NCBI GenBank assembly: GCA_021146305.1
Contig: GCA_021146305.1_4336.1
DNA from: a phage
Length of the DNA stretch: 43,091 bases
Direction: 5' to 3' (one strand)
Shown: positions 3,428 to 27,838 of the stretch, one piece after another
How positions within the stretch are numbered: the first letter of the stretch is position 1
Layout of the letters: each line of letters begins with the position of its first letter
The notes under the pieces: generated by a model
What the model was told of the DNA's origin: nothing
Databases searched by the model: none
The model's input: the letters and a program-made list of their open reading frames with translations, nothing else
Made by a program: the position numbers and the translations under genes

Positions 3428-5766
3428 TATTTAAACCCCGGCGCATTTCTTGTGGCCTTGCGGGCCTTGCTAATCTTACTGTTACTGTTCTGCAAAGAGG
3501 CAGCCACTTGCTCCTCGATGATGATACGCAAACGGCCTTCATCATCTTGCTCAGTGGATACGTTGCCGATTTGAGAACTCGTGTTGTTTACGATAGTAAC
3601 ATTAGACGGTCCGGAAGAAGACCCGTTTTGCCCCATAATTTCTTTCATCTGCTGTGCGGTGCGTACACGTGACGCACCAGCGGGCATGATAACTTCCGGT
3701 TTACCGCGTTCGGCGATGGTTGAAGCCTGCCCCGCGGATAACTGTCCGCCCTGTTCACGTGCGGACCTGATAGCGGAAATCTGCGCCATACCCGCCCCAA
3801 CGGCAGCGGCGGCAGCTACAGGAGCCAGGAATGGGCCAACTACAGGGATAGCCGCCGTGGACTTGTACGCCTCGATAGCCGCGGTGTAAGTGGCTATGGT
3901 GGCCTGTACGATAGCGAATGCCTTATACGCACCAGAGGCCTCGCCCAACGCAGACCCGATGTTTGAGGCCATGTTACCGAAGGCGGTTGCCGTTGCGTCG
4001 GCACGCTTGGTTGCGTATTGCTCATTGATGGCGTTAAGCGCGGCCTGATACTGCTTCTCACTAATAAGACCCTGCTCACGGTACTTATCGGCTACCGCCA
4101 GTTTCTGCTGTTCCTGGATGTCGAGAAGCTCAAGCTCAGTAGCGTTCTGGCCCATAATCTGAGCCATGAAGTCTTCACCTTTCTGGTTCTTTTCCTGCCG
4201 TTCTTTCTCTCGTTTAGCGAGTTCCTCCTGGCGAGCAGTGTCCGCTTCCAGCATAATCTGCGTCTTGGCGTTTTCGTACTGCTGGTCGCTAAGAAGCTGA
4301 TTGCCGTAAAACTCCTGTAGCTTGGTTAACTGCTGTTCCTGGTTGGCTTCTATTTTCTGGAATACGTCATCATTGAGATGAATTGACTGATAGTAGAAAT
4401 CCTCCGCGGCTTTCTTCTGGCGCTCGAACGCATCCGCTGCTTTCTTAGCGGCTTTTGCACCCGCGCTATCATCTTCAGATCCGCCGCCGGTACCAGTTAC
4501 CTTAAATTTACTAAGCCCTTCTTCCTTAGCGGCTTCTTTGTCGATGTCATACGCTGCGCGTTTAAGCGCGACGATATTTTGCTGAGCCTCCACCTGTTCG
4601 CGGAAACTTTTACGTGTCAGGTCCGCAACGTCGCGCTGAGTATCCAGTGCCATCCCCAGCTGGAAGTTAATATTTTTTGCTACGTCTACGGATTCCCCTG
4701 GTGTGAAGGCGGCCTTAACCAGCCGACCGGCATCCTGCGCCCCTTTAACCATATCCTCAAAGAAGCGCTCCATCGCGGTAAATTCTTCCGCGATGAAATC
4801 GAGCGCATCGGCGGCTGATTCCGCTATGGTTGTCGCCGTTTGTTCGCCGCTATCCGTGATACTTTTGCTACTAAAATCCCAAAGCTCATTTAGCCCGTTT
4901 ATCGCATCACCCACGAAACCAAATGCCGCGTCGAATGACATCTCTATTGCGCTTCCTACTTCCGACGCGATGTCACCCCACATACGCATCTCTGCGGCAA
5001 GTTCACCGGACGCAACCTGTGCGTTAAGTTCCTGGATTAAATCATCGATGTATCGGATAGGTTCGGCGAGCGCACCAACATCAAGACTGGTAGCCAGCGT
5101 CATTTTTAACTGCGACCATGAGTCGCTGGCACTGGCGATGGCCCCGTTAAGTGTGTTGGCCTGGTCCGCCATAGCCCCCGCGAAGTTTACGTTACCGATG
5201 TTGAGCAGGTATTGCTCGATGTCGGCAGCGCTCTTCTTAACTACCGTAGTAGTACCCTGGAATGTAAATTCAACATCGTTTTTGTTCTGTTTGGCCTTGA
5301 TACCAAATTCTTTAAGGCGCTCAAATTCAAAAGTACTAGCGTCTGCAACCGCCTCAATCATCTGATTCAGGTCTTTACCCATAGCAGCGGCGGTGTTTCC
5401 GTAGGAACGCAACGCTTCTTCTGACGGTGTAAGACCAAGCGCCACAAGTTTACGGAATCCCTCTACCGCCTGTTCAAGGCCATACGGAGTGTCGCGCGCG
5501 AAGTCTTGCAGGATGCTTAACGCCTGTCTTGCACCCTGCGTGCTTCCGGTTAGTGTTTTCAGGCTGGCGGACATCTTGTCCAGTTGCCGATGGGATTCTA
5601 CCAGTTCCTGTGCGGCCTTGTAAGCGGTAGCGGCGACGATGGAAGCGAGGCCCGCTACCGCAGCTCCGGCTACCTTTGCAGACTTGGAAAGGTTATCAAG
5701 ACGGTCTGATGTAGCTTTCGCGCCTTGCTCTGATACTTTTACAACTAAACTAGCTACATCAGCCAT
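3427..5766 (-). CDS. tail tape measure protein
   Basis: 779 aa, Ala/Gln/Glu-rich with extended coiled-coil character; largest gene of the tail block; preceded by two small chaperone-like ORFs and followed by minor tail genes. Confidence 0.85.
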   Translation of the reverse strand: MADVASLVVKVSEQGAKATSDRLDNLSKSAKVAGAAVAGLASIVAATAYKAAQELVESHRQLDKMSASLKTLTGSTQGARQALSILQDFARDTPYGLEQAVEGFRKLVALGLTPSEEALRSYGNTAAAMGKDLNQMIEAVADASTFEFERLKEFGIKAKQNKNDVEFTFQGTTTVVKKSAADIEQYLLNIGNVNFAGAMADQANTLNGAIASASDSWSQLKMTLATSLDVGALAEPIRYIDDLIQELNAQVASGELAAEMRMWGDIASEVGSAIEMSFDAAFGFVGDAINGLNELWDFSSKSITDSGEQTATTIAESAADALDFIAEEFTAMERFFEDMVKGAQDAGRLVKAAFTPGESVDVAKNINFQLGMALDTQRDVADLTRKSFREQVEAQQNIVALKRAAYDIDKEAAKEEGLSKFKVTGTGGGSEDDSAGAKAAKKAADAFERQKKAAEDFYYQSIHLNDDVFQKIEANQEQQLTKLQEFYGNQLLSDQQYENAKTQIMLEADTARQEELAKREKERQEKNQKGEDFMAQIMGQNATELELLDIQEQQKLAVADKYREQGLISEKQYQAALNAINEQYATKRADATATAFGNMASNIGSALGEASGAYKAFAIVQATIATYTAAIEAYKSTAAIPVVGPFLAPVAAAAAVGAGMAQISAIRSAREQGGQLSAGQASTIAERGKPEVIMPAGASRVRTAQQMKEIMGQNGSSSGPSNVTIVNNTSSQIGNVSTEQDDEGRLRIIIEEQVAASLQNSNSKISKARKATRNAPGFK

Positions 5767-15561: not shown

Positions 15562-15671
15562 GTTTCTCCTTTCTCGATAAGTAAAGCCCCGCCATAAAGC
15601 GGGGCGCTAGTCCTTATCATTTAAACATAGAAACGGCGTAATCTCAGTAAACCAGTTACTTTTTACACAAG

Positions 15672-15826
15672 CAATAGAGTATGGCCCTTCCGAACGCGTC
15701 AGCGTAACTACACTCAGGACTTACGTCCCGCTCCGTTACCTGCCCGCGCCGCGGTCGCTTGTTCATACTTCACAAGCTCAGGTGGAGCTTAGCACATTTT
15801 TAGTGAAAAGTCAACTATTCGAATAG
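15672..15826 (-). promoter_or_regulatory. conserved promoter + structured leader module, copy 1
   Basis: Leftward promoter TTGACT (plus coords 15809-15814), 17-bp spacer, TAAGCT (15786-15791), with palindrome CTATTC-GAATAG (15815-15826) just upstream; about 110-bp conserved leader 15672-15778 shared with copy 2, including stem ggac-ttac-gtcc (15717-15728). Confidence 0.55.
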
Positions 15827-15880
15827 TTTATTCCAACATTTACAATTGAGTGGAATAACCGGAATACATAAACAAATAGT

Positions 15881-15909
15881 TTGCGCACCCCAATATAATA
15901 GGGTACTAT
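15881..15909 (+). promoter_or_regulatory. sigma70-like promoter with operator palindrome
   Basis: TTGCGC (15881-15886), 17-bp spacer, TACTAT (15904-15909); palindrome TAATAG-ggta-CTATTC (15896-15911); near-identical to the promoter at 6648-6676. Confidence 0.55.
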
Positions 15910-15936
15910 TCATTCTATCGAACCGGGGAGGCCGTC

Positions 15937-16038
15937 ATGTTAGTCGTTATTTCAGTAGTAATTGCAGTTGATGCGGTGATGTTTCTTTGGGCTTGTAGCG
16001 GTATTGGTGACATTGACACGGGTAATGGTGAACTATGA
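15937..16038 (+). CDS. micro-peptide, hydrophobic
   Basis: 33 aa (MLVVISVVIAVDAVMFLWACSGIGDIDTGNGEL); GGGGAGG RBS; stop overlaps the start of the next gene (ATGA). Confidence 0.4.
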   Translation: MLVVISVVIAVDAVMFLWACSGIGDIDTGNGEL

Positions 16039-16379
16039 AATATATTAAATTAGCAGTAGCAGGTGTTGTAGCCGTTTGTTTGAGTGGTTGCGTAAGGTCG
16101 TTGCCAGACCCGGCTTTACAGGTTTATCAGGCAGGGGATACAACGGCAACATGTAATCAGTTACTATCGAGAATCGCCACGACAAAACAAGCTCAAGCCA
16201 ACGCTACGCACCGTGTTAATAAGCAAATAGGTACTAACGTTGTACTCGGTGTTACAGGCGCATTCCTGATTGTTCCGCTGTTCTTTATGGACACGGGCGC
16301 CGGGCCTTCTATGGACGAGATGACAGCCGGTAATCGTCTGTCGCAGTTACAACAAACATACGACGAGAAATGCAAATGA
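16035..16379 (+). CDS. lipoprotein with internal hydrophobic segment
   Basis: 114 aa; signal peptide ending in lipobox LSGC; later hydrophobic stretch VVLGVTGAFLIVPLFF. Confidence 0.6.
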   Translation: MKYIKLAVAGVVAVCLSGCVRSLPDPALQVYQAGDTTATCNQLLSRIATTKQAQANATHRVNKQIGTNVVLGVTGAFLIVPLFFMDTGAGPSMDEMTAGNRLSQLQQTYDEKCK

Positions 16380-16447
16380 CAAATAGTGTGATGTTTTATG
16401 TTGTTTTGTGGGTATCGGCTGCGGTTATCACCGCGATGTTCATATAA
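16376..16447 (+). CDS. micro-peptide, hydrophobic
   Basis: 23 aa (MTNSVMFYVVLWVSAAVITAMFI); ATGA overlap with the lipoprotein stop; very short, so tentative. Confidence 0.3.
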   Translation: MTNSVMFYVVLWVSAAVITAMFI

Positions 16448-16451
16448 AAAT

Positions 16452-16474: not shown

Positions 16475-16936
16475 TCATTCTGGCTTAGTAACCTTCGCCG
16501 CTTTGCTTACCGCCTCTACTCCATCGGCATCAGTAACTTTAACGAAGTATTCGCCGACCGCATTAACCGTCAGAGACAGAGCCTCCTCAGGCGCATTCAC
16601 CACTTCCTTACCGTCTTTGTACCAGGTCAGAGAATACGGCGCTTTGCCTGCCTTAACCTCGACAGTGATGGTTGCGCTGCCGCCCGCCAGTTCAGCGTCC
16701 TGCGGTTGCGCAGAGAAATACACGTCGCCAGCGTCCGCCAGATACGGAATTTCATAAAGCATACCTGCGGCGGGCAACGCAATACCGGTTTTATCTGCAA
16801 ACGGCATATCATCTACCGGTGTACCGAGTACACTTTCGTCCCCAATAAATACCACGTTCTCGCCAGAGCCAGACACGCGGGCGTACTGGACTACGCGACG
16901 AGACGGTACGTCAGTTACTTTGAAAAAGCCCATCAT
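16475..16936 (-). CDS. Ig-like domain protein (head or neck associated)
   Basis: 153 aa; C-terminal segment ATITVEVKAGKAPYSLTWYKDGKEV...GEYFVKVTD is Ig-like and similar in pattern to 12827-13168. Confidence 0.5.
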   Translation of the reverse strand: MMGFFKVTDVPSRRVVQYARVSGSGENVVFIGDESVLGTPVDDMPFADKTGIALPAAGMLYEIPYLADAGDVYFSAQPQDAELAGGSATITVEVKAGKAPYSLTWYKDGKEVVNAPEEALSLTVNAVGEYFVKVTDADGVEAVSKAAKVTKPE

Positions 16937-23514: not shown

Positions 23515-23660
23515 TTCTTCTCTCCTGCATAAGCTGCTTTAAGTGTCTGCATCGCAGCGAACCAGAACGCGTCCGCTGGAATGCTGTTGCTCAGGTTACT
23601 AACTGCGATGCGCGCCATCAGTTGCGCGTCTTTGAATGCTTCGATATCTGTGATTTTCAT
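23511..23660 (-). CDS. small hypothetical protein
   Basis: 49 aa from ATG 23658-23660 (GGAG RBS) to TGA 23511-23513, read manually. Confidence 0.35.
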   Translation of the reverse strand: MKITDIEAFKDAQLMARIAVSNLSNSIPADAFWFAAMQTLKAAYAGEKK

Positions 23661-23857
23661 TAGTTATTCTCCAGTATTTCTAACGCTTTCACGATGTAAC
23701 GTTTACGTAAAACATCAGTCTGCGCGCTATTAGCCCTGCGTATGTAGCCCGCAGCAGCCCTCATCTGTAGTTTTTCCACCGAACCATTCCCTATAACTGA
23801 TGCGATACATTTAACTTCGAGTTCTTCGGTTATTTCTATCGTCGATACGTTGCCCAT
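23660..23857 (-). CDS. hypothetical protein sharing a domain with 25835-26275
   Basis: 65 aa; C-terminal AGYIRRANSAQTDVLRKRYIVKALEIL matches IGYIRRANSAMTDTLRRQYLSKALEEL in the other protein; GGAG RBS. Confidence 0.5.
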   Translation of the reverse strand: MGNVSTIEITEELEVKCIASVIGNGSVEKLQMRAAAGYIRRANSAQTDVLRKRYIVKALEILENN

Positions 23858-25153: not shown

Positions 25154-25447
25154 TTATTTATGACGCCAGATGTATTGTCGTCTCTGCGGTTTCGATGGAA
25201 TATCATCGTATCCCAGCGATTTCCAGTAATTAAATAACCGATTAGCGATAGCTGCGCGTTCCTGTGTTTTAAACTCACCGAGGTTAACGGCCTTCCCGTT
25301 CTGGAATCCACAGGCGCGGATAGCTTTACGCCGTTCTTGTATCTCTGGGTACAGCACGTTACGGCGACGCTTGTGTATACGTGTCTTCGCTCTCGGTGAC
25401 CGCGGCGCAAGGCCGCTTCGTTTCAGGATGTCAGTTGCAAGAGACAT
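25154..25447 (-). CDS. putative DNA-binding protein (AP2-like)
   Basis: 97 aa from ATG 25445-25447 (GGAGG RBS, TAATG coupling); basic; segment GFQNGKAVNLGEFKTQERAAIANRLF resembles AP2-type domains; low certainty. Confidence 0.4.
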   Translation of the reverse strand: MSLATDILKRSGLAPRSPRAKTRIHKRRRNVLYPEIQERRKAIRACGFQNGKAVNLGEFKTQERAAIANRLFNYWKSLGYDDIPSKPQRRQYIWRHK

Positions 25448-25635
25448 CACTCCACCCCCTCCACATGTGTAACCGACCCACAGTTCGCGCACTCGACGTA
25501 ATCAGGGTACTGGTCTTTGTATTTCTGTAACTCAGCTTCAAGTTTCGCGTAATCTTCGTAAAGCACTAACACGCCCTCAACATCAGGAGTAAACCCGAAT
25601 ATCTGGTCGTAGGTATATCTCTGCACCATAATCAC
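25447..25635 (-). CDS. hypothetical protein
   Basis: 62 aa; AGGAG RBS; C-terminal CANCGSVTH. Confidence 0.45.
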   Translation of the reverse strand: MIMVQRYTYDQIFGFTPDVEGVLVLYEDYAKLEAELQKYKDQYPDYVECANCGSVTHVEGVE

Positions 25636-25834: not shown

Positions 25835-26275
25835 TCAGAGGTATCTCCCGCACGTTTCACATATTTTTGTACCAAACGGCGCGGAGCCATCTGTTACTAC
25901 ATAATAGTAACTGTGGCGGCATTCCTGCGCGTCTTCTTTCCGGCAACCGGATTTCTCAGGCGCATCCTTACATCCGAGTTCCTCAAGTGCTTTGCTAAGG
26001 TATTGGCGGCGCAGGGTGTCAGTCATTGCACTATTTGCCCGCCGGATGTACCCAATCGCGCCTTTAGGGTCCAGGTCAACGATTGAACGAAGACACATAA
26101 CCTCGTTTTCAGCGCAATCCAGCGCACAGGTTAGTTCCTTAATCTGCGCCGACGCGTCACGTAACTGATTCTTTAGTGACTGCACTTCATGCACCAGGTC
26201 TTCGCACTGGTTGCTGTTTACCTGCTGCCGTAGTTGGTCAATCAGGTACTCGAATACTTCGTTTTTGTTACTCAT
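25835..26275 (-). CDS. coiled-coil protein with shared domain and C-terminal Cys4 motif
   Basis: 146 aa; GAGGAG RBS; N-terminal coiled coil, central IGYIRRANSAMTDTLRRQYLSKALEEL shared with 23660-23857, C-terminal C-x7-C ... C-x2-C zinc-ribbon-like motif. Confidence 0.55.
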   Translation of the reverse strand: MSNKNEVFEYLIDQLRQQVNSNQCEDLVHEVQSLKNQLRDASAQIKELTCALDCAENEVMCLRSIVDLDPKGAIGYIRRANSAMTDTLRRQYLSKALEELGCKDAPEKSGCRKEDAQECRHSYYYVVTDGSAPFGTKICETCGRYL

Positions 26276-26993: not shown

Positions 26994-27175
26994 TTCGCCC
27001 CTTTGAATTTAAAATTGTTGCCGATGAGTTCTAAATCACATTTACGGAGTAACCCTTTGCCGTAACCTGCGACGCTATTAACCTCCACAAAACCGAACCA
27101 CATTAGCTTCGATTCTATTATCGTAAATAAATTGCCTGTAAATTTATTCCGCACCAATTGACCCTTCTTAAACAT
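26990..27175 (-). CDS. hypothetical protein, first gene of the leftward early operon
   Basis: 61 aa from ATG 27173-27175 with AAGGAG RBS; about 30 bp downstream of the promoter at 27211-27239. Confidence 0.5.
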   Translation of the reverse strand: MFKKGQLVRNKFTGNLFTIIESKLMWFGFVEVNSVAGYGKGLLRKCDLELIGNNFKFKGAK

Positions 27176-27210
27176 AACCCTCACTCCTTATGTCTCGTTT
27201 CGATAAGTGA

Positions 27211-27239
27211 ATAGTAGCCTATTATGTTGGGGTGTGCAA
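27211..27239 (-). promoter_or_regulatory. sigma70-like promoter with operator palindrome (leftward early)
   Basis: Minus-strand TTGCAC (plus 27234-27239), 17-bp spacer, TACTAT (27211-27216); palindrome GAATAG-tagc-CTATTA at 27209-27224. Confidence 0.55.
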
Positions 27240-27281
27240 GAGATTAGTTACGTTGCCGTTGTGATTCTTTTGTTTCTTTAA

Positions 27282-27337
27282 AGAGTACGCAACGCAGTGG
27301 GTGGGCGTTAGCCCACCCCAGCGGAGTGAAGTACTCT
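27282..27337. other. nested stem-loop in the early-left leader
   Basis: Outer inverted repeat AGAGTAC (27282-27288) / GTACTCT (27331-27337) enclosing inner hairpin GGGTGGGC-gtta-GCCCACCC (27299-27318). Confidence 0.45.
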
Positions 27338-27404
27338 CTACCTTGCTTACGGCAACTATAGAAACTTTTAATTATCAGTGACTTGAGTATTTAGGCGGGA
27401 TTAA

Positions 27405-27548
27405 CAATAGACTTTGGCCCTTCCGAAAGCGCCAGCGGAACTACACTCAAGTGCCTAATGGCACGCGTTGCGTTCCCTGCCGCTCCGCGGTCGCTTGCGA
27501 TATCTCACAAGCTCAGTGAAGCTTAGCATATTTTTAAGTAAAAGTCAA
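27405..27548 (-). promoter_or_regulatory. conserved promoter + structured leader module, copy 2
   Basis: Leftward promoter TTGACT (plus 27543-27548), 17-bp spacer, TAAGCT (27520-27525); leader 27405-27512 aligns with copy 1; stem gtgcc-taat-ggcac (27451-27464) replaces ggac-ttac-gtcc of copy 1. Confidence 0.55.
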
Positions 27549-27655: not shown

Positions 27656-27838
27656 ATGCAGCATTACATGACACAGAATGAAGTGGCTGAACGTATCGGG
27701 GTGACACGTCAAACCATTAATAACTGGTTGCGCAGCGGTAAATTCCCTGATTGCTGTATTAAGGTTATGGGTCGCCGTTTACCAGGAACATTTGACCGTA
27801 ATAAAGTTGAAGCATGGATTAAGGAGAACGTGAAATGA
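27656..27838 (+). CDS. HTH DNA-binding protein (AlpA / excisionase-like)
   Basis: 61 aa from ATG 27656 with AGGAGA RBS; helix-turn-helix VAERIGVTRQTINNWLRSG. Confidence 0.55.
   Translation: MQHYMTQNEVAERIGVTRQTINNWLRSGKFPDCCIKVMGRRLPGTFDRNKVEAWIKENVK

Follow-up and report, generated by a model that had tools for sequence, protein, structure and literature searches.

A promoter-linked structured leader RNA, present twice in a K1G-like phage, as a candidate regulator of late-gene transcription in the Guernseyvirinae

The 43,091-nt stretch of phage DNA analysed here (hereafter, the window) contains two minus-strand copies of a single module, in which an extended -10 promoter is followed by two hairpins, one 5'-terminal (P1) and one long and irregular (P2), and then by a conserved tail, a spacer and a further, GC-rich hairpin. 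The core of this module specifies a well-supported structured RNA family that is absent from Rfam and is a member of no known family. It falls within the known category of promoter-proximal cis leader RNAs, where put of phage HK022 is its closest functional analogue, and we propose it as a new candidate regulator of late-gene transcription.

The 43-kb window belongs to a Kagunavirus (Guernseyvirinae), a K1G-like E. coli siphophage. A 17-kb query spanning both loci matched 493 phage records, mostly at 80–95% identity, all of them Jersey-like phages of Escherichia or Salmonella. Comparison with the annotated relative Sciku was used to name the genes of two minus-strand runs. The first extends leftwards from ~27.5 kb and comprises early small genes, holins, endolysin, terminase, portal, a head-morphogenesis protein and a Hoc-like decoration protein (ending at 16475), and the second extends leftwards from ~15.8 kb and comprises spanins, scaffold, major capsid, connector and tail genes. 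Copy 1 of the module lies between the terminator of the head-decoration gene and the spanin-scaffold-capsid-tail genes, and the promoter of copy 2 is placed in the divergent early region, opposite an HTH gene at 27656 on the plus strand.

An earlier note on this DNA, made from the letters alone, had reported that the two loci align over about 145 bp. The alignment is borne out, with 78% column identity over 300 nt and 84% over the RNA-sense core, and weaker homology extends beyond that length through the A/U-rich spacer, with GTTTCTAT and CTGA..ATTA in common and the shared block GUUUCUAU(G/A), up to the GC-rich hairpin. A covariance model applied to the whole window recovered the two minus-strand copies with scores of 130 and 107 bits, the next match scoring 9 bits; no third copy and no plus-strand copy was detected in the window with this model.

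Both copies begin with the same promoter, as the earlier note had proposed. The pattern TTGACT-N14-TGC-TAAGCT occurs exactly twice in the window, where 0.23 matches would be expected at up to 2 mismatches. In copy 1 (15786..15814, minus strand) the -35 hexamer TTGACT occupies 15814-15809 and the -10 hexamer TAAGCT 15791-15786, separated by a 17-nt spacer with TG at -15/-14, and copy 2 (27520..27548, minus strand) is an exact match to the pattern. By its sequence the promoter would be of the sigma70 type, with an extended -10, a good -35 and a TAnnnT -10 element; a generic promoter scan missed it because TAAGCT fits only 3 of 6 consensus positions. Both hexamers are invariant among relatives, in which the spacer bases and the N of TGN vary, and Jersey- and Cornell-like relatives keep the same promoter design (TAGACT/TGGAYT, 17 nt, TGN-TA(C/A)(G/C)CT).

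The two promoters differ in their upstream sequences. A perfect palindrome, AACTATTCGAATAGTT (15813..15828), abuts or overlaps the -35 hexamer of copy 1 and is missing from copy 2, and TTATTCC/GGAATAA repeats (15828-15858) lie just upstream of this palindrome. The TTATTCC repeats are also found upstream of the homologous promoter in Ent1, GRNsp27, L098 and PSDA-2. The palindrome and the repeats are probably binding sites for a regulator, and the timing of the copy-1 promoter would come from these elements, which copy 2 lacks. Two Logan contigs starting at RNA positions 4 and 5 were considered as a proxy for the transcript 5' end and rejected as an assembly artefact: one of the two starts coincides exactly with a break in a k=31 de Bruijn graph and the other lies within a few nt of it, and the break falls after a 34-nt stretch common to copy 1 and to D-F-type copy 2. 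The published time-course RNA-seq of the closest relative, K1B4, reports gene-level classes only, without transcript ends.

The core leader spans ~110 nt, with the minus strand as the RNA sense. Its fold begins 4–8 nt past the conserved -10 hexamer, that is, at the predicted 5' end of the transcript, and the modelled start site would lie 1–2 nt upstream of P1. In copy 1, P1 (15757..15777, minus strand) is a 5'-terminal hairpin of the form GCUUGU-loop-ACAAGC found in both the minimum free energy (MFE) and the consensus fold; its stem has 6–8 bp across copies, and a GA linker separates it from P2 in both copies. P2 (15690..15754, minus strand) is a long irregular hairpin, predicted to stack to ~23 bp broken by internal loops, in which CCG/CGG, a bulged C, GGCGCG/CGCGUU, CAG/CUG, GUAAC/GUUAC, an internal loop and the terminal stem follow one another from base to tip. 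The third of these elements has the general form GGNGCG/CGCNUU and contains two G-U pairs, the internal loop has GGAG on its 5' side and AGUGUA on its 3' side, and the terminal stem-loop is CGGGAC-GUAA-GUCCUG. The tail, AAGGGCC-AUAC-UCUAUUG (15672..15689, minus strand), is conserved and unpaired in all folds.

The core RNA of copy 2 (27404..27517, minus strand; 107 bits, E 4e-28) has the same architecture, with P1 at 27493-27512, P2 at 27423-27490 and the tail at 27405-27422, and differs from copy 1 in having GGAAC/GUUCC in place of GUAAC/GUUAC and an entirely different P2 terminal stem-loop. Folding, which the earlier note had suggested as a check, returned the P1-P2 shape as the MFE structure of each core (z = -2.6 for copy 1, where it equals the centroid, and -4.1 for copy 2). 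The tail takes the general form AAGGGCC-N4-UCUAUUG in both copies, and its segment CGGAAGGG(C/U)C is near-invariant in all sequence types, the most divergent included. Conservation is highest at the helix junction and the single-stranded tail, with the distal stems variable, which is the appearance expected of a binding platform. A pseudoknot joining the P1 loop (AGUAUG) to the tail (CAUACU), hinted at by the MFE structure of the full leader, was rejected: the tail position facing G in the proposed pseudoknot varies among C, G, U and A without compensation, and types B, C and J misfit.

Related loci were collected by exact-pattern scans of IMG/VR and metagenomes and by fetching loci through the scaffold protein. 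They fall into six Kagunavirus types (A-F), a Jerseyvirus type (J) and two Cornell-like types (G1 and G2). The score of type J, in Ent1, rose from 39 bits with the first model to 68 with the second, and G1 and G2 scored 22–38 bits. In J and G the sequence of P1 is unrelated (ACGCU-UUC-AGCGU and GUUC-UAC-GAAC), with a hairpin kept at the transcript start. Copy 1 was found at the equivalent site in most Guernseyvirinae examined (Kagunavirus, Jerseyvirus and Cornell-like phages), despite ~50% sequence divergence. Of the 181 GenBank phage records that carry type A, 179 have it at an identity of 95% or more, and some are Salmonella phages with a scaffold protein only ~86% identical, so that the leader would appear either to be under very strong constraint or to be exchanged horizontally as a cassette. 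The metagenome pattern scan returned 72 loci, of which those scoring with the model all lie on Kagunavirus-like contigs of ~44 kb; the remainder were set aside as chance GC-rich matches without a model score. More distant relatives of the scaffold protein (in Serratia, Shewanella and others) gave no model match, and among the scaffold relatives and metagenome loci searched nothing was found outside the Guernseyvirinae. Phages PSDA-2 and L088 have a different structured leader, which has only the ...CGG-GG-AUAGUCUAUU tail in common with this one.

The main evidence for the structure comes from covariation. The short stem that the earlier note had singled out (ggac/gtcc at 15717-15728; gtgcc/ggcac at 27451-27464) is confirmed, and the two copies show further compensatory differences, from C-G to A-U in P2b and from U-A to G-C in P2d. 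We then scored an alignment of 44 distinct sequences, representing at least eight sequence types from relatives, against shuffled alignments and against structures slid along the sequence. The fraction of cells paired was 95.1%, compared with 82.8% in shuffles and 30–37% for slid structures, a percentage that is inflated by fitting the alignments to the model, yet the slid controls, fitted equally, collapse. Changes on both sides were seen at 17 of 29 pairs (shuffles, 9.2 ± 1.5; slid structures, at most 7), and the covariation score was 0.301 (shuffles, 0.098; slid structures, at most 0.047). None of 500 shuffles reached the observed value for any of these three measures; the count of further pair types was not significant, being reached by 88 of 500 shuffles. 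Helix 1 (P1) is 100% paired, with 3 of its 6 pairs changed on both sides across types, and the corresponding counts are 10/17 in helix 2 and 4/6 in helix 3; a single P2b position shows C-G, U-A and A-U. An earlier alignment agreed with the result from the 44 sequences.

The structure also has a strand. Three G-U pairs are conserved, each of which would become a C-A mismatch on the opposite strand, and the selected structure is therefore that of the minus-sense RNA rather than of duplex DNA or of the opposite transcript. The leader structure is real and is one of RNA. With covariation far above chance in the alignment with relatives, the central proposal of the earlier note, a structured, covarying 5' leader of minus-strand transcripts, is upheld, with the start position being a predicted one.

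Downstream of the core, copy 1 continues into an A/U-rich spacer (15606..15671, minus strand) that contains a conserved block, GUUUCUAUGUU, with a -10-like TATGTT at 15624-15629. The block is common to copy 2 (GUUUCUAUAGU, 27355-27360) and partly to Ent1 (CCGUAUGAU). The spacer leads to the leader hairpin GCCCCGC-UUUAU-GGCGGGGC + UUUACUUAU (15577..15605, minus strand), which resembles an intrinsic terminator and was the best terminator-like site of the region in a terminator scan. The hairpin ends 4 nt ahead of the Shine-Dalgarno sequence of the spanin gene (15566-15572; ATG 15561), giving an overall order of promoter, ~195-nt leader, terminator-like hairpin and ribosome-binding site (RBS). 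Its stem covaries in relatives, CCCCGC/GCGGGG being replaced by CCCTGC/GCAGGG five times and by CCCAGC/GCTGGG once. Ent1 and Cornell-like phages have a GC hairpin at the equivalent site with poor U-tracts, and a usable U-tract is confined to copy 1 of Kagunaviruses.

With only 4 nt between the U-tract and the Shine-Dalgarno sequence, the sole promoter-like sequence placed for these genes lies upstream of the hairpin, and as there is no room for a promoter after it, expression of scaffold and capsid would need read-through. Besides this additional terminator-like site at 15605-15586, inside the copy-1 leader itself, the two downstream terminators cited in the earlier note are present on the minus strand, at 13214-13193 after the capsid gene and at 9140-9121 after the tail tube gene, and essential genes directly follow each of them. 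Promoter-like sites precede most of the sub-operons.

The surroundings of copy 2 are different. Its GC hairpin, GGGGUGGGC-UAAC-GCCCACCC (27299..27319, minus strand), identified from sequence and folding, has no U-tract, and between this hairpin and the first gene (Shine-Dalgarno and ATG at 27173-27190) sits a separate sigma70-like promoter, TTGCAC-N17-TACTAT (27210..27239, minus strand). This promoter is accompanied by an operator-like palindrome, AATAGGCTACTATT, that belongs to an 11-member family where 1.1 members would be expected by chance. Since its own hairpin and then a separate promoter precede the first gene, copy 2 cannot be regarded simply as the leader of this operon. In K1G the promoter and core of copy 2 are replaced by a consensus TTGACA-17-TAAAAT promoter, with the copy-2 spacer, hairpin and downstream promoter retained, and no second copy was found in the early region of the Jerseyvirus Ent1. 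Judging from these two genomes, copy 2 is dispensable. A blastn search found a second place in ~30% of the records carrying type A (224–235 places in 181 records), and copy 2 represents a duplication that only some Kagunaviruses have.

Searches against known RNA families gave no match. With gathering thresholds applied, Rfam 15 returned 0 matches anywhere in the window; the best score in a local E-value scan was 15.7 bits, against a threshold of 42, and fell outside the core. As Rfam holds no put family, we built a model from putL and putR of HK022, using coordinates found by repeat search that agree with the residue numbering of PMC9378689. This model scored 91–92 bits on both put sites; no match exceeded 9.7 bits either in the window or at the Ent1 and GRNsp27 loci, and none lay at the leaders. 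Reciprocally, the leader model found nothing in the HK022 put region, and membership in the put family was rejected. The observation in the earlier note that boxA and boxB are lacking was sustained: boxA (GCUCUUUAACAA-like) matches at up to 3 mismatches number 36 versus 38 expected, none of them in either core, with one chance-level match at 27275-27286, downstream of the copy-2 hairpin; visual inspection showed no conservation among the terminal loops (GUAA, AUUA, UGUAG, CUCG, GUUA, GUCA, CACAA, UCC). Among 20 small or early-region proteins compared with Pfam and PHROGs, none belonged to the N, Q or another antiterminator family. The resemblance to nut and put elements suggested in the earlier note thus stays an analogy, with no match of the put model at the element and no boxA. 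No description of the leader RNA was found in the phage papers searched, which give only generic promoter and terminator predictions.

We tentatively favour a leader that acts in cis, in a put-like manner, to control read-through both at the leader hairpin or terminator and at the downstream terminators, a reading to which we would attach less than even confidence. Host RNA polymerase (RNAP) carrying sigma70 would start at the module promoter through the extended -10, and the nascent RNA would fold from its first nucleotides into P1 and P2. The functional surface would be the conserved junction and tail (ACCGCGG...UUCGGAAGGGCC), and the folded RNA would alter the fate of the transcribing polymerase, rendering it resistant to the leader hairpin and to later terminators, either alone, as does HK022 put, or together with an additional factor. 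We infer a cis action of the RNA, exerted on the complex that transcribes it or on the transcript itself, and the occurrence of the same RNA on two differently regulated promoters fits a portable cis element. Several observations speak against read-through control. The leader hairpin may not be a terminator, given how poor its U-tract is in Ent1, Cornell-like phages and copy 2. A separate promoter stands between copy 2 and the first gene, and the absence of the copy-2 core in K1G and Ent1 means that read-through from copy 2 is not essential there. The promoter-like sites at most sub-operons lower the need for processive antitermination, and partial terminators after capsid genes are common in phages without an antitermination system. 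The RNA is also unlike put in sequence and proportions. A stronger form of the proposal, which we regard as doubtful, is that the leader represents a second, independent family of protein-free nascent RNAs that reprogram the RNAP of E. coli and Salmonella, with a put-like mechanism and an unrelated sequence, and drives the Guernseyvirinae structural operon through its terminators.

Other readings accommodate parts of the same evidence. The module could produce a small RNA of ~195–225 nt that ends at the GC hairpin and either works in trans or serves to decoy a host protein or defence system, with the downstream genes served by read-through or by other promoters. The succession of promoter, structured RNA and GC hairpin in both copies is in keeping with this, as are the independent promoter between copy 2 and the first gene and the rank of the copy-1 hairpin as the top terminator-like site of its region. 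The 194-nt 6S RNA of lambda arises from PR' in the same way, and a conserved host partner would fit with how little type A varies between phages of E. coli and Salmonella. Nonetheless, we consider a small RNA unlikely, since the lack of promoter room between the copy-1 hairpin and the spanin RBS means that the same transcript must also serve as mRNA for the main structural operon, and U-tracts are poor in most types. A role in mRNA stability or processing, setting the half-life or translatability of late mRNA, is likewise improbable in our estimation: invariant loop and tail sequences (GAGUG, CGGAAGGGCC) are unneeded by a stabiliser, and the junction is conserved above the helices, where a site for a nuclease specific to double strands alone would show the reverse. 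Such a role would have P1 shielding the 5' triphosphate and P2 serving as a site for RNase III or another nuclease, as in the T7 early leader, and it draws on the position of P1 at the extreme 5' end in all types, on the conservation of pairing rather than sequence, and on the resemblance of the ~23-bp P2, with its internal loops, to RNase III sites as known from T7. The A/U-rich spacer followed by a GC hairpin near the RBS would also make a plausible site for RNase E cleavage that leaves a protective hairpin.

A sensor-type attenuator, in which the core would switch the hairpin in the manner of nut/N or a riboswitch on binding a small ligand or a protein of phage or host, seems to us quite improbable. 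Attenuators classically have a structured domain at the 5' end and a terminator-like hairpin just ahead of the RBS, conserved internal-loop nucleotides are typical of binding pockets, and the separate sequence types are reminiscent of specificity classes among nut sites. An antiterminator/terminator alternative, in which the core would pair with the hairpin's 5' arm, was nevertheless rejected, its pairing being not consistently better than in shuffles (28 of 500 shuffles attained the -22 kcal/mol of copy 1, and 350 of 500 the energy of copy 2), and variants of the terminator stem occur in relatives without accompanying changes in the core; the lack of a consistent alternative pairing makes a classical riboswitch or attenuator switch unlikely. 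With two copies in one genome differing in the terminal stem-loop, this stem-loop cannot be the specific contact, and there is no boxA, no N- or Q-like protein among the 20 tested and no Rfam riboswitch. The notion of a DNA-level site (operator, origin or packaging signal) or of a small protein-coding gene has very little to commend it in our judgement. It can draw on the palindrome abutting the copy-1 promoter and on the annotation of a hypothetical protein across the element in some records. The conserved G-U pairs are strand-specific, however, and argue against a DNA-binding site, which the earlier note had listed as an alternative. The small open reading frame (ORF) across the element was rejected as well: its AUG start codon, in the P1 loop, is missing in types B, J (Ent1) and G (Cornell-like), its frame closes early in types C and D, the compensatory changes keep pairing and not codons, and no conserved ORF over the leader exists across types.

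Among known systems, the model for the favoured reading of a cis-acting, put-like leader is HK022 put, which suppresses termination in cis without a phage protein and is blocked by mutations in the zinc-binding domain of rpoC. As with put, there are two related copies per genome with compensatory differences, a location at the head of a long operon, a two-hairpin architecture with a conserved junction, the use of host sigma70 RNAP, and no identifiable antiterminator protein (here among the 20 proteins tested). Likewise, putL begins at +2 of the HK022 PL transcript (PMC9378689), and the leader, with its start predicted, lies near the operon promoter and upstream of same-strand terminators at 15605, 13214 and 9140. 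The differences are that neither sequence nor structure matches either way, that put, at ~65–74 nt, consists of two stems of ~33 and ~37 nt whereas the leader has a 20-nt P1, a 65-nt P2 and a conserved single-stranded tail, and that both leader copies lie on the same strand of a virulent, non-lambdoid phage in which antitermination is a proposal.

The layout also recalls PR'-6S-tR' of lambda, with a constitutive-looking promoter, a ~195-nt untranslated leader and a terminator directly before the lysis and structural genes; a DNA palindrome marks the copy-1 promoter, unlike that of copy 2. Q, which works through a DNA site and a sigma-dependent pause, has no need of RNA structure, whereas the conserved feature here is an RNA fold, and no Q-family protein was found among the 20 tested. 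Like the nut sites of lambda and P22, the leader is a promoter-proximal RNA signal in two copies whose stem-loop sequence differs between copies and phages, but the leaders have no boxA, their terminal loops are not conserved, they are far larger than the 15-nt boxB, and the proteins tested include no match to a known antiterminator family. Like the leader, the T7 RNase III sites R0.3 and R1.1 are irregular hairpins of about two helical turns whose internal loop is asymmetric; they too lie in phage mRNA leaders and are duplicated in the genome. They differ in that here the junction and 3' tail, not the helix, are conserved, that cleavage is only proposed, and that the P1 hairpin and the promoter belong to the duplicated unit. 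To our knowledge, very few natural cases of RNA-only control of RNAP exist (put, EAR and RARE). EAR RNA of Bacillus and RARE of E. coli are other RNA-based antitermination elements (PMC8632103). Both are similar to the leader as structured RNAs in or at the head of long terminator-containing operons, and differ in showing no detectable similarity (0 Rfam matches) and in coming from other organisms and contexts.

The Guernseyvirinae, both Jersey-like and K1-specific, are widely used in biocontrol and therapy against Salmonella and E. coli, and we know of no description of how their late genes are timed and driven. If the protein-free reprogramming of RNAP considered above holds, the module would be portable, having been copied, promoter included, to a second operon in some Kagunaviruses. 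Even if the leader serves in mRNA stabilisation or processing, it constitutes a new and well-supported RNA family absent from Rfam, and its strong covariation, defined promoter and two natural copies make it a small and readily mutated test system. The leader also corrects existing annotation: several GenBank records place a hypothetical protein over the element, such as the 36-aa CDS at 5621-5731 in Sciku.

Phage K1G lacks both the promoter and the core of copy 2 (L042 36680-37010), and carries in their place a TTGACA-17-TAAAAT promoter followed by an unrelated leader that includes the terminator hairpin of copy 1 in inverted orientation. The spacer, GC-rich hairpin and second promoter downstream of the copy-2 site are kept. 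This replacement of promoter and core with retention of the downstream parts points to a mosaic exchange of leader modules. At the copy-1 site, the PSDA-2-like phages harbor a different structured leader (L058 1085-1215; L088 1700-1830), composed, in order, of AAGAUGC-GAAA-GCAUCUU, a long hairpin whose loop is GUAA, and ACCG...CGG-GG-AUAGUCUAUU. Only the base and the tail motif are common to this leader and to the family of copy-1 and copy-2 leaders, and the covariance model of the leader RNA does not detect it in either L058 or L088.

Two Logan contigs, ERR1600577 and SRR32048611 (L179 1-30 and L180 1-30), start at leader-RNA positions 4 and 5. A reading of these starts as transcript 5' ends was rejected, since a k=31 assembly graph breaks at or close to these points: the break expected after the 34-nt stretch common to both copies coincides exactly with the start of one contig and falls within a few nt of the other. 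These two contigs caution against the use of contig ends as a proxy for start sites.

Immediately upstream of the copy-1 promoter lies a set of TTATTCC/GGAATAA repeats, which together with a perfect palindrome, AACTATTCGAATAGTT, occupies window 15813-15858; in Kagunavirus the palindrome covers the -35 element of this promoter. The repeats are kept across the subfamily, with counterpart regions in relatives at L057 1680-1735, L059 1560-1615, L098 1650-1705 and L058 880-915, and are absent from copy 2. They are probably binding sites for a late-gene regulator. The window also contains a plus-strand insertion (15830-16450), which separates the copy-1 promoter from the terminator upstream of it and is missing from Sciku and K1G. 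It encodes a hydrophobic ORF of 33 aa (15937-16038, plus strand) and a lipoprotein-like ORF of 114 aa (16035-16379, plus strand) with an LSGC lipobox and assigned to phrog_13472, both downstream of a promoter at 15897. The insertion resembles a moron, possibly with a role in superinfection exclusion.

The palindrome AATAG-N4-CTATT (14 nt) occurs at 11 sites in the window against 1.1 expected by chance, among them 6664, 15897, 23912, 26306, 26504, 27210, 31064, 31108, 33657 and 37230. It is embedded in two promoter designs: TTGACA-N4-palindrome-...TATAGT, found ahead of plus-strand replication genes (31108, 33657 and 37230), and TTGCAC-N17-TACTAT, in which the palindrome covers the -10 element (6664 and 15897 on the plus strand, 26306 and 27210 on the minus strand). 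The motif looks like an operator for a phage regulator. In the fBC-Eco01 paper it is described as a 'phage RNA-polymerase promoter', although the relatives' annotations that were examined list no phage-encoded RNA polymerase.

Possible regulators include three minus-strand proteins of the early region. One, of 112 aa (25154-25492; phrog_9632), is rich in arginine at its N-terminus, RSPRAKTRIHKRRRN, and appears on visual inspection to contain a DNA-binding region of AP2 type; a Pfam search with this protein returned no match. The other two (25835-26275 and 23660-23857) have the motif GYIRRANSA..D.LR..Y..KALE in common and appear to be paralogous.

A boxA-like match, ACUCUUUAAAGA, with the boxA core CUCUUUAA, is located 12 nt past the copy-2 hairpin (27275-27286, minus strand). 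It is statistically at chance level and has no counterpart in copy 1; in K1G it is kept with one additional U.
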